From: Erysipelotrichaceae bacterium
GTDB lineage: Bacteria; Bacillota_I; Bacilli_A; Erysipelotrichales; Erysipelotrichaceae
DNA: 32,000 nucleotides
NCBI GenBank assembly: GCA_030604855.1
Contig: JAUVVC010000008.1
Location: 1-32,000, forward strand
Reading direction: 5' to 3'
The notes under the pieces were generated by a model. It saw only the letters and a list, made by a program, of their open reading frames with translations. It did not search any database and was not told where the DNA came from. Position 1 is the stretch's first letter; the number at the start of each line of letters is the position of its first letter. A program made the translations under genes and the position numbers. Below are positions 26,002 to 30,654 of this stretch, piece by piece.

Positions 26002-26586
26002 ATGATGAAATTTAAAACGATTGAGATCGAAGACTTAAACATCAATCCCGTGACCATGATTGGACAAGATTGGTGGCTTGTGACGGCAGGCAATGATATC
26101 AAGGGATACAACACCATGACCGCTTCATGGGGACATCTTGGTGCCATTTGGGGCAAAGAAGGCAAGAAACATAAGAACTTATTGGGTTTACCAACAGCAG
26201 TCGTCTACGTACGACCTCAACGTTACACAAAACAGTTCATGGATACAGAAGCGATCTTCACGCTCTCAGTCTTTGATCGTGCGTATCGTCATGCCTTGGT
26301 AACCCTCGGTTCACACTCAGGGCGAGATGGGGATAAGGTTTCAAAGTCAGGATTGACGCCTATGTTCGATGAAAATGCGACGTACTTCAAAGAGGCAAAA
26401 ATGGTGTTCATCTGTAGGAAAATCTACCAAGCTCCACTGCTTGAAGAAGGGTTTGTCGATACATCGATCCTAAAGTTCAATTATGATGGGGGTGATCTTC
26501 ATGAGATGTATATTGGAGAAATCCTTAAGGTGCTTGTTTGTGAGGAACAGACAAACGAACGCAACATTAAATCGGTGGAGTTATGA
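26002..26586 (+). CDS. Flavin reductase-like (FMN-binding split-barrel) domain protein
   Basis: 194 aa. IGQDWWLVTAGNDIKGYNTMTASWGHLGAIWGK is typical of the flavin-reductase-like family. SD AAAGGAGG sits 7 nt before the ATG. Confidence 0.65.
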   Translation: MMKFKTIEIEDLNINPVTMIGQDWWLVTAGNDIKGYNTMTASWGHLGAIWGKEGKKHKNLLGLPTAVVYVRPQRYTKQFMDTEAIFTLSVFDRAYRHALVTLGSHSGRDGDKVSKSGLTPMFDENATYFKEAKMVFICRKIYQAPLLEEGFVDTSILKFNYDGGDLHEMYIGEILKVLVCEEQTNERNIKSVEL

Positions 26587-26739
26587 TCTTTAGAAAGATG
26601 TTATCAAGCAGGGTTTATGAAAGATTATTAAGTGTCAAATATTTGCAGGGGGATCAATTCGTTTATTCAAACACATGAGCACAATTCGTGCATAATTGAG
26701 TTGTAGAAGTTAATATGATTAACAAAAAGGGAGATTATT

Positions 26740-27615
26740 ATGGACATCAAACGAATTGTCATCTATTCATTTTTGTTTGTATTGATAACGGCTTTGGCGA
26801 GCCAAGGTTTTACACAACTAGGGCTTGTGATTCCGCTAATTCTAACCTTTGTATATTTCACTGCTATCTTTATTTATGCCCAAATTATTAAAAACAACTC
26901 GATCGTCGATATTGGTTGGGGCATGGGCTTCGTGATTGGTAGTTGGGTCACCTTATTGACAACTGAAACCCCAACATTACTTTCCTATCTTGTGGTCGCT
27001 TTCATTACAGTATGGGGCGTTCGTTTATCCGTTCGTTTATTCAAACGTAATTGGGGCAAGCCGGAAGATTTCCGTTATGCGCAATGGCGTGAAGAATGGG
27101 GGAAGAATGTCGTTATCACAGCCTTCTTTAGAGTCTTCATGATTCAAGCTTTGATCAACTTCATCGTTGGGTCCGCTGCCTATTCCACCATTCGCTACAA
27201 CACATTCAGTGGAGGAATTGACAGTATCTTTGTCTATGGGGGCTTGTTAATTGCTTTGATTGGTTTATATTTTGAAGTCGTTGGCGATGAACAACTTCGT
27301 AAGAATATCGAAGAAAACAAACGCAAAGGAACAAAGACTTTGATTCAAACTGGCTTATGGTCCATTACGCGTCATCCAAATTATTTTGGTGAAATCTTGA
27401 TTTGGGTGGGTCTCTACTTGGTTGGATTTACCTTGTTAATCACACAAGCTGTTCATCCTCTGTATTATGGGCTATTGATCATCTCACCTTTATTGATGAG
27501 CATCGTATTGATCAAAATTTCAACACCCTTGTTGGAGAAGAATATGGAGAAATATGCAGGTTGGGATGAATATGCAAAACGTGTCCCGATGATCTTTCCT
27601 GGATTTAAGAAATAA
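26740..27615 (+). CDS. DUF1295 / steroid 5-alpha-reductase-like (ICMT-fold) membrane protein
   Basis: Polytopic membrane protein. The C-terminal motif LIQTGLWSITRHPNYFGEILIWVGLY is the DUF1295/ICMT-type signature. SD AAGGGAG is present. Confidence 0.7.
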   Translation: MDIKRIVIYSFLFVLITALASQGFTQLGLVIPLILTFVYFTAIFIYAQIIKNNSIVDIGWGMGFVIGSWVTLLTTETPTLLSYLVVAFITVWGVRLSVRLFKRNWGKPEDFRYAQWREEWGKNVVITAFFRVFMIQALINFIVGSAAYSTIRYNTFSGGIDSIFVYGGLLIALIGLYFEVVGDEQLRKNIEENKRKGTKTLIQTGLWSITRHPNYFGEILIWVGLYLVGFTLLITQAVHPLYYGLLIISPLLMSIVLIKISTPLLEKNMEKYAGWDEYAKRVPMIFPGFKK

Positions 27616-27685: not shown

Positions 27686-27714
27686 TTGATTTAAATGTTT
27701 CTATGGCTTATAAT
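27686..27714 (+). promoter_or_regulatory. Sigma-A-type promoter of the DUF1538/PII-like pair (TTGATT-17-TATAAT)
   Basis: -35 TTGATT (27686-27691), an exactly 17-nt spacer and a consensus -10 TATAAT (27709-27714). It lies about 20 nt upstream of the ATG at 27735, with a GGGGG SD in between. Confidence 0.65.
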
Positions 27715-27734
27715 TAAATAGATAGGGGGTAAAG

Positions 27735-29222
27735 ATGAATCGACTTTACGATAAGTTCAATGAAGTGGTCCGGGTTGTGTTGCCGTTTATCCTCTTCGTG
27801 TTGTTTTTTAATTTTACATTGGTTCCGTTGGGCTCTGAATTATTAGGCGCCTTTTTAATAAGTTCTGGTTTTATTGTGCTGGGTTTAACCTTCTTTTTAT
27901 TAGGTGTTGACCTCGGTATCACGCCCATGGGCAATCAAATTGGTCCATTATTGGGTAAGACAAAAAGGATATGGAGTTTAGTTTTATTTGCGTTCATTAT
28001 TGGTTTCTTTATTTCCTACGCAGAACCAGCTTTACTGGTCATGTCAATTCAAGTGGAAGAATTAAGTTTAGGTTTGCTAAGCGCAAGTGTATTGAATGTG
28101 AGTGTTTCTGTTGGGATCGGCGTGATGGTTGTGGTGGGCTTCATACGTATCTTCTACAATCTACCTTTATATAAGATTCTCTTTGTAAGTTATGGTTTGG
28201 TACTTCTCATTGCCTTGAGTGCTTCACCACAGATGTTGGCGATTGCATTTGATGCCTCAGGTGTTACCACGGGTGTCTTAGCGGTTCCTTTCTTGCTCTC
28301 CTTATCCATGGGAGTAACAAATCGACGTAAAGATAGTAAAGCGTCTGAGAAAGATAGCTTCGGAATGATTGCGATTGCGTCCGTTGGGGCAATTCTCTCG
28401 GTGCTCATTCTAAACATCGTTTTTAAACCTGGTTTCGTTTCCATCCAGAGTTTACCTGAACTTGAAACAGGCAATAATCTGCTTTATCGCTTTTCTGACA
28501 TCTTTTTCCCAGTTGGACAAGAAAGCGTACAGTCTATCCTCCCTTTATTTGTGATTTTTCTGATTATCACATTGTTAAATCGTCTATTTAGGACAAAGCT
28601 CTTCAAACGAATCAGTATTGGATTCATCTATGCTTTATTGGGCTTATTTCTATTCTTGGTGGGGATCAACGCCAGCTTCATTGAAGTCGGACGTCTGCTT
28701 GGCTCAGAATTGATTTTGAAGTTTAGTGCACCTTGGGTGATCTTGATTGGCTTTGCATTAGGGGTGGTGACGATCTTAGCAGAACCCGCCGTTGCCATCT
28801 TAACCCAGCAAATTGAGGAAGTCACATCCGGTTATATCAGTCGGAAAGCTGTCAATGCCTCCTTGGCCATCGGTGTTGGTTTCGCCATTGCTTTATCTGT
28901 CTTACGCATCGTTGTGGTGGATATCCAGTTGTGGCACTATCTTTTGCCAGGTTATCTGTTTGCCTTGGCCCTCAGCTTGTTTGTACCTAAGCTGTTCGTT
29001 GGGATTGCCTTTGATGCAGGGGGCGTAGCGACAGGTCCAATGATTTCAAGCATCGTCATGGCCTTTGTCCATGGGATTGCCAACACACAAAGTGGTGCCG
29101 ATATTCTAATCGATGGTTTTGGCATGGTAGCCTTGGTAGCCTTGATGCCTGTCATCACGATTCAAATACTTGGTCTGATTTTTAAACTTAAAATGCAAAG
29201 GAGTGTTCTCAATGATGCATGA
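27735..29222 (+). CDS. Polytopic membrane protein made of two DUF1538-like halves (uncharacterised putative transporter)
   Basis: 495 aa with 12 or more hydrophobic segments. Clear internal duplication: GVDLGITPMG / GINASFIEVG, AEPALLVM / AEPAVAIL, IAFDASGVTTG / IAFDAGGVATG. Confidence 0.7.
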   Translation: MNRLYDKFNEVVRVVLPFILFVLFFNFTLVPLGSELLGAFLISSGFIVLGLTFFLLGVDLGITPMGNQIGPLLGKTKRIWSLVLFAFIIGFFISYAEPALLVMSIQVEELSLGLLSASVLNVSVSVGIGVMVVVGFIRIFYNLPLYKILFVSYGLVLLIALSASPQMLAIAFDASGVTTGVLAVPFLLSLSMGVTNRRKDSKASEKDSFGMIAIASVGAILSVLILNIVFKPGFVSIQSLPELETGNNLLYRFSDIFFPVGQESVQSILPLFVIFLIITLLNRLFRTKLFKRISIGFIYALLGLFLFLVGINASFIEVGRLLGSELILKFSAPWVILIGFALGVVTILAEPAVAILTQQIEEVTSGYISRKAVNASLAIGVGFAIALSVLRIVVVDIQLWHYLLPGYLFALALSLFVPKLFVGIAFDAGGVATGPMISSIVMAFVHGIANTQSGADILIDGFGMVALVALMPVITIQILGLIFKLKMQRSVLNDA

Positions 29223-29895
29223 AAATTGCTTTTATCTCACTGTGTTCATAATCGACCGTGAAAAGGGAAGTACGGTTTTAAAACACGCTAAACAGAATGG
29301 AGCTTTGGGCGGATCCATCCTTTTGGGCAGAGGTACCGTAAACAGTTCGTTGCTTCATCTTTTAGAACTTGCAGACAATCGTAAAGCTGTTGTGTGGATA
29401 TTGGCTGGCGCACAATCCGCAGTCAACATCGTGACCAAGACAGCCGAAAAGTTTCAGTTTGCGAAAGCCAATAAGGGCATCGCCTTCAGTGTTCCCATTA
29501 GTAATCTCTTTGGGACAACAAGCAGTATCGGGGTGGGAACACATTGCCACATTCAAGAGGAGGATCTCATGACAACGCATCAAACCATCATTGCCATCAT
29601 CGAAAAAGGTCAAGCAGAACGTGTTGTGGAAGCGGCACGTCAAGCAGGCGCTTATGGGGCAACCATCATCAATGCGCGTGGATCTGGCATTCACGAAGAG
29701 TATAAACTTTTCGCGATCGAAATCGAGCCTGAGAAAGAAATCGTATTGATGGTCGTAAAGAGCGAACAAGTTGATAAGATATGTAAACAGATCATAAAAG
29801 AAACTCAGATCAACGAACCTGGTAAAGGCGTTCTATTCACTCAACCAATCAATCATGTCTTTGGTTTGGATGAAGGGACTGTGAAAGCTAAATAG
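29212..29895 (+). CDS. Tandem PII (GlnB)-like signal-transduction protein (two PII-like domains in one chain)
   Basis: Two ferredoxin-like halves: YLTVFIIDREKGSTVLKHAKQNGALGGSILLGRGT... and TIIAIIEKGQAERVVEAARQAGAYGATIINARGSG.... The ATG at 29212 is preferred (SD AAAGGAG 29197-29203). It overlaps the upstream stop (29220-29222) by 11 nt. Confidence 0.7.
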   Translation: MMHENCFYLTVFIIDREKGSTVLKHAKQNGALGGSILLGRGTVNSSLLHLLELADNRKAVVWILAGAQSAVNIVTKTAEKFQFAKANKGIAFSVPISNLFGTTSSIGVGTHCHIQEEDLMTTHQTIIAIIEKGQAERVVEAARQAGAYGATIINARGSGIHEEYKLFAIEIEPEKEIVLMVVKSEQVDKICKQIIKETQINEPGKGVLFTQPINHVFGLDEGTVKAK

Positions 29896-30104
29896 TTCAT
29901 TATTTAGGAATGTATTATTTTGGGATTTAAATCAAGCTGTGTTGTGTGAAATCTGTGTTCACAAACTGTTCACGAGACCTTCATCCAGAAGTGTTGAATT
30001 CTAAGGAGAACGTGCTATGATGAAGATACCCTTTAGGATGGTTGCAAGTCTTGAATAAAATAATGCGATATCGATGAGAGGCAACCTATAAATCCTGAAG
30101 AGCG

Positions 30105-30134
30105 GGGCATCTTAGTGAAATAAGATGCCCTTTC
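30105..30134 (+). terminator. Strong Rho-independent terminator in the PII-to-30190 intergenic region
   Basis: Perfect 10-bp stem, GGGCATCTTA (30105-30114) pairing with TAAGATGCCC (30121-30130). The loop is 6 nt, followed by TTTC. Confidence 0.7.
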
Positions 30135-30159
30135 ATATGCTTAGCCTGTTAATTATATT

Positions 30160-30168
30160 TGTTATAAT
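30160..30168 (+). promoter_or_regulatory. Extended -10 promoter element (TGTTATAAT) for the 30190 gene
   Basis: TGnTATAAT matched exactly, 21 nt upstream of the TTG start. SD AAAGGAG lies between them. Confidence 0.5.
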
Positions 30169-30189
30169 GAAATCAAAAAGGAGACCAGC

Positions 30190-30654
30190 TTGGAAACACC
30201 AGAAATCAGCTTAGACCAACACAAACAATTTGCCATCGAACTTTTTAACAACACTTGGGATATGCTCGAGAAAAACGATCGCAGTGATTACGATGATGTC
30301 CGCATGATCCATATGGCGCACACTTCACTCTATCATTGGAGCTATGTGGGTGAAGCTGTGAATATGACCAGAGGTGAATGGCTGGTTTCAAGAGTCTATT
30401 GCAGCGTAAGTCTATTGGAAAGTGCTGAATACCATGCCCAAAAGTCGTTATCCATTTGTTTGAACAATGCCATCGGGGATATTGATTTGGCGTTTGCGTA
30501 TGAAGCCTTTACACGTATTTCTGCTCTAAGAAAGAATGAAGAAGACTATCATAAATACAAAGCTTTGGCCGAAGCGGCTTCAAAGCAGATCGAATCAATC
30601 CATAATCGTGATTACTTTATGAGTGAACTGGAAAAAATAGAACTTAAAAAATGA
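30190..30654 (+). CDS. Hypothetical cytoplasmic all-helical protein, 154 aa
   Basis: The TTG start is supported by a strong SD (AAAAGGAGA) 6-7 nt upstream. No motif recognised. Confidence 0.55.
   Translation: METPEISLDQHKQFAIELFNNTWDMLEKNDRSDYDDVRMIHMAHTSLYHWSYVGEAVNMTRGEWLVSRVYCSVSLLESAEYHAQKSLSICLNNAIGDIDLAFAYEAFTRISALRKNEEDYHKYKALAEAASKQIESIHNRDYFMSELEKIELKK

Follow-up and report, generated by a model that had tools for sequence, protein, structure and literature searches.

A two-repeat DUF1538 membrane protein and a tandem PII-like protein from Erysipelotrichaceae may form a PII-gated cation/proton transporter

The 32,000-nucleotide stretch of DNA that we analyzed (the window; positions 1 to 32,000 of the forward strand of contig JAUVVC010000008.1, from the Erysipelotrichaceae assembly GCA_030604855.1) contains two overlapping genes, which encode a membrane protein of the DUF1538 family (gene 1) and a tandem PII-like protein (gene 2). 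With moderate confidence, we propose that they form the operon of a monovalent-cation/proton transporter that is gated by the T-loop of a PII-like protein. Gene 1 would encode a secondary transporter with 14 transmembrane (TM) segments, in which two oppositely oriented DUF1538 repeats make a single-chain version of a heterodimer of the UmpA/UmpB type, and gene 2 would encode its cytoplasmic regulatory subunit, with two PII-like domains. The complex would most likely exchange Na+, K+, or Li+ for protons. The invariant short T-loop of the C-terminal PII domain would dock on the cytoplasmic face of the transporter and switch transport, as in GlnK/AmtB and SbtB/SbtA, and docking would depend on a small ligand. 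Relative to the proposal as a whole, we are more confident about the formation of a complex by the two proteins and less confident about the substrate and the plug mechanism. The two genes and their main parts are:

27735-29222, + strand: gene 1, a 495-amino-acid membrane protein with two DUF1538 repeats (open reading frame list, Pfam)
29212-29222, + strand: 11-nucleotide overlap of the start of gene 2 with the stop of gene 1 (TGA at 29220-29222)
29212-29895, + strand: gene 2, a 227-amino-acid cytoplasmic tandem PII-like protein (Pfam, half-to-half homology, AlphaFold2, Foldseek)
29230-29514, + strand: N-terminal, divergent PII-like domain of gene 2 (residues 7-101; hhalign, AlphaFold2)
29575-29868, + strand: C-terminal PII-like domain of gene 2 (residues 122-219), the counterpart of the single PII protein of the split modules described below

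Both genes belong to large families. A word-indexed search found relatives of the tandem PII protein in 1604 clusters at 90% identity, and all 120 of those listed are 212-246 amino acids long. An exhaustive search of representatives of 50% identity clusters gave 2245, 1080, and 123 matches at E ≤ 1e-3, 1e-10, and 1e-30, respectively. At least 533 GTDB species representatives encode a relative of the tandem PII, and several metagenome contigs have the identical protein with its neighbors unchanged. The DUF1538 protein had 4021 matches, and nearly all of the 120 listed are ~490-500 amino acids long. The hosts are mainly Clostridia, Erysipelotrichaceae, Christensenellales, Acholeplasmatales, and Bacilli (including Halobacillus, Virgibacillus, Thalassobacillus, Gracilibacillus, and Bacillus methanolicus), and they include one metagenome-assembled genome from the Kosmotogaceae. 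A preliminary description of the window, made from the sequence alone, had treated the double fusion as a peculiarity of this DNA; it is instead the usual form in a large family of Bacillota.

The two genes are tightly co-conserved. We took 80 species loci and left out the window's own organism (L005, a metagenome-assembled genome of the Erysipelotrichaceae that the window matches at 99% identity) and one locus without upstream DNA (L047). In all of the remaining 78 loci, a fused DUF1538x2 gene (489-506 amino acids) lies directly upstream of the tandem PII gene, on the same strand. In 70 of the 78, an in-frame start of the PII gene overlaps the upstream stop, most commonly by 8, 11, or 17 nucleotides, which indicates that translational coupling is a conserved feature of the family. 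(The overlap of 11 nucleotides that was first described for the window stands, as does the tandem PII of 227 amino acids; its ATG is at 29212.) Furthermore, among the 72,556 plasmids in PLSDB, exactly nine records have a DUF1538 gene, and the same nine records have this clade of PII proteins; the genes are always adjacent. At E ≤ 1e-8, the tandem PII matched nothing in PLSDB beyond these nine records, so this clade is distinct from ordinary GlnB and GlnK proteins. In a linkage test, gene 2 was linked to DUF1538 in 78/78 loci, and the Amt and GlnA families were absent from the top neighbor families. This is the arrangement expected of a PII-gated transporter: a PII-like gene that accompanies a transporter gene, is apparently co-transcribed with it, and is strictly co-conserved with it.

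The pairing also persists when the genes are rearranged. In Proteobacteria, we found split modules with a DUF1538 gene (~230 amino acids), another DUF1538 gene (~245 amino acids), and one PII gene (105-122 amino acids), in that order, with junctions that are 4-nucleotide overlaps or gaps of 1-8 nucleotides. The preliminary description had taken DUF1538 and PII-like genes to be usually separate, and these modules bear out that separate genes exist. They are carried by plasmids of Methylocystis rosea, a Chelativorans plasmid, Bradyrhizobium, and other Proteobacteria. On the mobilizable M. rosea plasmid pGW6_2 (L085, 57-10684), the split module is bracketed by IS66-family elements, which suggests that the module moves horizontally. 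In alignments, the single PII from the modules of Methylocystis, Chelativorans, and Bradyrhizobium corresponds to the C half of the tandem PII, with which it has invariant motifs in common: R-G at the T-loop base, a conserved Glu within the loop, and, where beta3 starts, I-E-P-E-K-E. We therefore equate the C domain with the single PII and regard the N domain as an additional copy that has diverged.

At the other extreme, two proteins have three PII domains, in the order N-type, C-type, C-type: P0361 (357 amino acids, from a cluster of 22 members, on long contigs) and P0501 (325 amino acids). Both follow a fused DUF1538x2 gene (L093, 3466-6074; L095, 1004-3526). In L093, a MgtE_N+CBS protein and a DUF1003 protein are encoded directly downstream of the triple PII. 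Finally, we found single-chain DUF1538x2-PIIx2 proteins with the PII part at the C-terminus: P0452 (709 amino acids), P0498 (720 amino acids; L094, 3001-5163, on a 17-kb contig), and a fragment, P0414. Each of these is a singleton in a collection of 15 billion proteins. Across lineages, then, an equivalent membrane unit can be accompanied by chains of one, two, or three PII domains. This weakens the preliminary argument that the fusions reflect a fixed stoichiometry. A transporter with its own PII-like regulator was also the preliminary interpretation; co-conservation across phyla and architectures strengthens it, and we still consider it the best reading.

The family assignments hold for both proteins. 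The product of gene 1 matches DUF1538 (PF07556) in Pfam with E = 2.7e-123 (409.6 bits versus a cutoff of 22.6), in two stretches, and the Pfam scan found no other family in it. The repeats span residues ~1-230 and 249-495. When aligned to each other, the halves are 29% identical (E = 5e-20), so the two-fold internal repeat noticed at the outset is genuine; the motifs given as examples of it, IAFDASGVTTG and IAFDAGGVATG, lie at 28242-28274 and 29004-29036. The AlphaFold2 model is all-helical, with a pLDDT (predicted local distance difference test) of 82.7 and a pTM (predicted template modeling score) of 0.80. A phmmer comparison to the sequences in PDB gave zero matches. The top Foldseek match was CLC-ec1, which we rejected as the fold of this protein because the match was not significant (E = 0.012, TM-score 0.14). 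In each repeat of the model, helices are broken at an AEP motif and at an FDAxGxxTG motif. The conserved elements of gene 1 are:

28020-28028, + strand: AEP motif of repeat 1 (A96-E97-P98), with a helix break at residues 95-98 in the AlphaFold2 secondary structure
28248-28274, + strand: FDASGVTTG motif of repeat 1 (residues 172-180), with a helix break at residues 178-183 in the AlphaFold2 model
28317-28364, + strand: conserved basic cytoplasmic loop of repeat 1 (residues 195-210, TNRRKDSKASEKDSFG; conservation, K+R count)
28779-28787, + strand: AEP motif of repeat 2 (A349-E350-P351), equivalent to that of repeat 1
29010-29036, + strand: FDAGGVATG motif of repeat 2, equivalent to FDASGVTTG

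Neither the E nor the P of the AEP motif varies, whether in repeat 1, in repeat 2, or in the split homologues from Proteobacteria. D173 and D427, from the FDA motif, are invariant across repeats and phyla, and R138 likewise does not vary in the two repeats or in the split proteins of Proteobacteria. We would expect a cation/proton site to have this pattern of four acidic residues at helix breaks, so E97, E350, D173, and D427, which lie at the predicted breaks, are likely to be the ion and proton sites. In the basic loop, D200, E205, K206, D207, S208, F209, and G210 are invariant, and K199, S201, K202, and S204 are conserved in at least 90% of homologues. The conserved segment K199-G210 is present in repeat 1 alone, and we consider this loop a candidate docking surface.

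The orientation of the repeats was predicted from loop charges, as the mean number of lysines and arginines (K+R) per loop over 51 homologues of the gene 1 product. Each loop of repeat 1 is given with its counterpart in repeat 2:

N-terminus, 2.1 (net +0.6), versus the linker, 1.6 (net -1.2)
Loop 1-2, 0.0, versus loop 1'-2', 3.4
Loop 3-4, 0.0, versus loop 3'-4', 2.6
Loop 6-7, 4.3, versus loop 6'-7', 0.4
Linker (end of repeat 1), 1.6, versus the C-terminus, 4.3

Equivalent loops of the two repeats have opposite biases. By the positive-inside rule, this predicts a 14-TM inverted repeat (7+7) with both the N- and C-termini in the cytoplasm, and every loop fits. UmpA and UmpB are each predicted to have seven TM segments (PMC5484666), in agreement with this topology. 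Furthermore, the single-chain fusions carry their PII domains at the C-terminus, which is predicted to be cytoplasmic.

In the product of gene 2, residues 125-216 score well above the cutoff for the Pfam P-II model (PF00543; 52.8 bits versus 25). The Pfam model misses the N-terminal domain, even at E = 10, and this half was assigned by its homology to the C half. The two halves are similar by BLASTP (E = 6e-11) and by profile-profile comparison (hhalign, 99.5% probability, E = 2e-23, 98 columns), and the AlphaFold2 model (pLDDT 81, pTM 0.80) contains two beta-alpha-beta-beta-alpha-beta units. Thus, the N half is a duplicate of the C half. Because Pfam is blind to the N domain, automatic annotation sees one PII domain and labels the protein as a nitrogen regulator. 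Foldseek matched the model to GlnK/PII structures one domain at a time (the best was 2j9c, GlnK1, E = 8e-7), and it gave no credible two-domain structural precedent for the tandem PII (the long alignments had root-mean-square deviations of 13-18 Å). Similarly, phrase searches of the literature for tandem or double PII proteins gave only proteins of the NIF3 type. A conserved part of the protein is:

29677-29730, + strand: short T-loop and start of beta3 in the C domain (R156-G-S-G-I-H161-E162 ... I171-E-P-E-K175-E; conservation, pLDDT)

R156, G157, H161, E162, F167, and I171-E176 of the C domain are invariant or nearly so, and neither the T-loop nor the IEPEKE motif changes from phylum to phylum. 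The pLDDT falls below 50 at residues 160-171, so this T-loop is predicted to be flexible or disordered. A loop that is invariant and is nevertheless predicted to be disordered fits the pattern of a loop that orders on a partner. We also compared the protein to GlnK1 of M. jannaschii, using HMMER alignments. The T-loop of the C domain is 4-5 residues shorter than that of GlnK, and it is not a full-length T-loop of ~20 residues, as in canonical PII proteins. The position of Q39, which contacts 2-oxoglutarate, is deleted; of the residues that contact the phosphates of ATP, K90 aligns to Ile or Val and R101 aligns to the invariant G218; and R103 is absent as well. The equivalents of K58 (K58 and K175) and the B-loop glycines are retained. 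Given these residues, canonical binding of Mg-ATP and 2-oxoglutarate by this protein is unlikely.

As to what is transported, the preliminary statement that DUF1538 has no assigned function is outdated. In Halomonas zhaodongensis, UmpA and UmpB were found in 2017 to form a membrane heterodimer with Na+(Li+, K+)/H+ antiport activity at pH 6.5-9.5, for which both proteins are needed (PMC5484666). The corresponding NCBIfam models, UmpA (NF041627) and UmpB (NF041628), are the only NCBIfam matches of the gene 1 product. It scores 179.6 and 157.5 bits against them, far below the equivalog cutoffs (490 and 500, respectively), which the split proteins of Proteobacteria likewise miss by a wide margin. 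Scored separately against UmpA and UmpB, the halves of the gene 1 product reach 97/84 and 94/88 bits. UmpAB and the system in the window share PF07556 and an architecture of two homologous units of ~7 TM segments that work together. The order of the units is also alike: UmpA is the better match for the N half, and UmpB is the better match for the second gene of the split modules. They differ in that UmpAB is encoded by two genes for proteins of ~250 amino acids, instead of a single chain of 495, and in that a PII-like partner gene is strictly associated with the membrane protein here, whereas the UmpAB paper mentions none (PMC5484666).

Other observations are consistent with cation/proton exchange. 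The neighbors of the split modules include P-type cation ATPases, an MrpA-like subunit of the Mrp antiporter, and a Na_H_Exchanger+TrkA_C protein, along with tandem Usp proteins and a CBS+BON protein. A machine-learning study from 2026 lists DUF1538 among the genome features that are predictive of optimal growth pH (PMC13255231); PII is not mentioned in that paper either. Together with the activity of UmpAB and the invariant acidic residues of gene 1, these findings are the basis for our proposal that the substrates are monovalent cations and protons. We found no description of a DUF1538-PII pairing in the literature that we searched; apart from these two papers, the work there that mentions DUF1538 deals with other families of antiporters or with stress-tolerance elements, to judge from titles and abstracts.

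The genes around the fused loci were less informative. When we clustered 608 flanking open reading frames with BLAST, no neighbor was conserved in more than 8 of ~79 loci, and in a Pfam tally of the nearest upstream and downstream genes, no family reached more than 4/67 and 4/71, respectively. We found no conserved small open reading frame upstream of the fused modules. Rfam gave no riboswitch or leader RNA, either close to the module in the window or in the upstream DNA of 13 homologous loci that have long gaps ahead of the module, and the DNA upstream of the module is conserved only between close relatives. So, the survey of neighbors that was originally suggested as a source of hints about the substrate turned up cation-homeostasis genes beside the split modules and no conserved family beside the fused ones.

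PII-like proteins such as GlnK, which acts on AmtB, and SbtB, which acts on SbtA, gate transporters by binding adenine nucleotides, second messengers, or small effectors. As in GlnK-AmtB, the PII-fold gene in the window directly follows the transporter gene, and we would expect a flexible T-loop to insert into the cytoplasmic face of the transporter. In contrast to GlnK-AmtB, the transporter is from an unrelated family, the T-loop is 4-5 residues shorter and the protein lacks Q39, K90, R101, and R103, the regulator has two domains instead of being a homotrimer of single domains, and the membrane partner is pseudo-two-fold instead of trimeric. SbtB-SbtA offers the concept of a valve plug, and it is similar in that a non-canonical PII-like protein is dedicated to a single co-transcribed and internally repeated transporter. 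However, the Pfam domain of SbtA (Sbt_1) was not detected in the gene 1 product, and we found no link at the sequence level between the gene 2 product and SbtB. Another PII-like cytoplasmic module on a poorly characterized Bacillota membrane transporter is known from AexB (YvjA) of Bacillus subtilis, a 5-TM exporter of aromatic amino acids whose fused PII-like cap reportedly adds to transport efficiency (PMC13170310). Since AexB comes from another family of membrane proteins, with the PII-like domain in the same chain, this is an analogy only.

The most serious alternative, which we judge improbable although well worth considering, is that the architecture and the PII gating are as we propose and that the substrate is something else, such as an anion, bicarbonate, ammonium, a divalent metal, or a small metabolite; the Na+/H+ activity of UmpAB would then be specific to its clade or a side activity. 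The known PII-gated transporters carry ammonium, bicarbonate, or nitrate, and the relationship of gene 1 to UmpA and UmpB is very distant. Also, the neighbors of the fused loci give no hint of the substrate, one triple-PII locus adjoins a MgtE_N+CBS protein, and the top Foldseek matches, which are weak, are CLC Cl-/H+ exchangers. But those matches are not significant, the invariant residues that are embedded in the membrane are acidic and would suit cations or protons better than anions, and the neighbors of the split modules are monovalent-cation and pH systems. Furthermore, the sole experimental datum for the family is cation/H+ antiport (PMC5484666).

A less probable alternative is that the PII-like protein is an obligatory subunit for activation or assembly, and not an inhibitory plug: it would be a cap that concentrates the substrate or stabilizes the active state, as proposed for AexB. 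The conserved, tight translational coupling and the occasional full fusions would suit a permanent subunit, and so would the loss of the canonical effector-binding residues; the reported contribution of the AexB cap to transport efficiency is a parallel (PMC13170310). That parallel is only an analogy, however, as it comes from a different family, with 5 TM segments and a fused PII-like domain. In addition, the invariant and apparently disordered T-loop resembles the switchable plug loops of GlnK and SbtB, and UmpAB was active in E. coli from a clone of four open reading frames without a PII gene (PMC5484666).

It is quite improbable that the membrane protein serves mainly as a sensor or anchor that sequesters the PII-like protein, as AmtB sequesters GlnK, with the output at cytosolic targets. 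PII proteins commonly have several targets, and this subfamily is not known to carry out transport. Against this, we did not find a conserved third partner gene in the fused loci, the inverted repeat and the invariant acidic residues at helix breaks are features of a transporter, and the relative UmpAB does transport ions (PMC5484666). Lastly, a chance adjacency of two functionally unrelated genes is effectively refuted, since the genes are adjacent in 78/78 loci of different species and in 9/9 plasmid records, the pairing is kept in different phyla and in the split, fused, and triple forms alike, and the overlap of start and stop is conserved.

Several points weigh against a T-loop-gated cation/proton transporter and temper our confidence in it. 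The evidence for the activity of UmpAB comes from one laboratory, by heterologous complementation and vesicle assays (PMC5484666). The 4.2-kb clone that was tested contains four open reading frames, none of which is a PII gene (PMC5484666), so activity in that clade does not depend on PII. Because the scores of the gene 1 product are so far under the equivalog cutoffs, the substrate is transferable at the family level only, and the fused Bacillota loci have no conserved neighbors or riboswitch that hint at one. The canonical nucleotide-contact residues are missing from the PII-like protein, so they are no guide to its ligand. A count of PII domains that ranges from one to three does not point to one stoichiometry or docking geometry. 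And the single-chain proteins, which if true would be Rosetta-stone evidence for a physical complex, could be either rare genuine fusions or artefacts of frameshifts in the short overlap.

More tentatively, DUF1538 and its dedicated clade of PII proteins may represent a separate class of PII-gated ion transporter that has yet to be described, marked by a novel fold, altered sensing, and rebuilding of the number of regulatory domains. The membrane fold would be one without a representative among solved structures. The regulator would have given up the sensing of ATP and 2-oxoglutarate for another signal, which might be Na+, K+, or pH (via the invariant His-Glu and the Glu-rich motifs) or a second messenger, and regulator chains of one, two, or three domains would fit an asymmetric inverted-repeat transporter. 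The copy in the window is a typical member. The novelty lies in the whole class, in which a PII clade that is widespread and mis-annotated is tied to a transporter family without a solved structure and has one, two, or three PII domains per chain. The label "P-II family nitrogen regulator" for these proteins in hundreds of genomes of Bacillota, Proteobacteria, and others is almost certainly wrong, and we would describe them instead as dedicated partners of DUF1538 transporters. If our proposal is correct, then the valve-plug principle of PII proteins would extend from ammonium, bicarbonate, and nitrate to a family with a member in Na+/K+/H+ homeostasis, and the UmpAB story would gain a missing regulatory layer. 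The DUF1538 family is also of structural interest, as it combines the lack of a solved structure with a clear 7+7 inverted repeat and four invariant acidic residues. Chains with one, two, and three PII domains occur naturally, and they could be used to investigate the adaptation of a three-fold regulator fold to a target with two-fold pseudo-symmetry.

The candidate expression signals of the operon are:

27686-27714, + strand: SigA/sigma-70-type promoter-like site, TTGATT-17-TATAAT (10/12), 20 nucleotides upstream of the ATG of gene 1
27724-27729, + strand: Shine-Dalgarno sequence of gene 1, AGGGGG, 5 nucleotides before the ATG at 27735
29197-29203, + strand: Shine-Dalgarno sequence of gene 2, AAAGGAG, within the 3' end of gene 1 and 8 nucleotides before the ATG at 29212
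30105-30130, + strand: perfect 10-base-pair hairpin (GGGCATCTTA / TAAGATGCCC) followed by TTTCATATGCTT, an inverted repeat and candidate terminator

The near-consensus promoter of the preliminary description is the top promoter-like site in the region that was scanned. The region has 7 such sites, as compared to 6.9 in shuffled sequence, so we regard the promoter as plausible and without statistical support. The hairpin folds with -20 kcal/mol (z = -2.7). A terminator scan passed over it because of its short T-run, and it is a candidate terminator that may belong to this operon. The gene after the module has a TGtTATAAT element of its own. Given the promoter-like site, the hairpin, and this element, it is reasonable to describe the operon as a self-contained module.

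Besides the hairpin, the 294-nucleotide spacer after the operon (29896-30189) contains a TG-extended promoter-like site (29994-30021) and a 13-codon open reading frame (30018-30059) with an AAGGAG ribosome-binding site; Rfam found nothing in this spacer. Just downstream, at 30190-30654, is a gene for a 154-amino-acid protein that has no match in Pfam and that travels with the module on contigs of the window's organism. Upstream of the module (26002-27615) are genes for a flavin-reductase-like protein and a DUF1295 membrane protein; on the opposite strand is a kinase/dehydrogenase pair that resembles proB-proA (AA_kinase, Aldedh); and downstream are a PRD/PTS (phosphotransferase system) regulator with a cellobiose-type PTS and a GH1 enzyme. 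None of these flanking genes (flavin-reductase-like, DUF1295, proBA-like, PTS, GH1) is conserved beside the module in other species.

Finally, the DUF1538 gene of the window starts with ATG, as it does in only 5 of 58 homologous loci. In 50 of the 58, the start is TTG, after a conserved ribosome-binding region (GAAAGGAAGTGA), which suggests that translation initiation is deliberately weak in most species.

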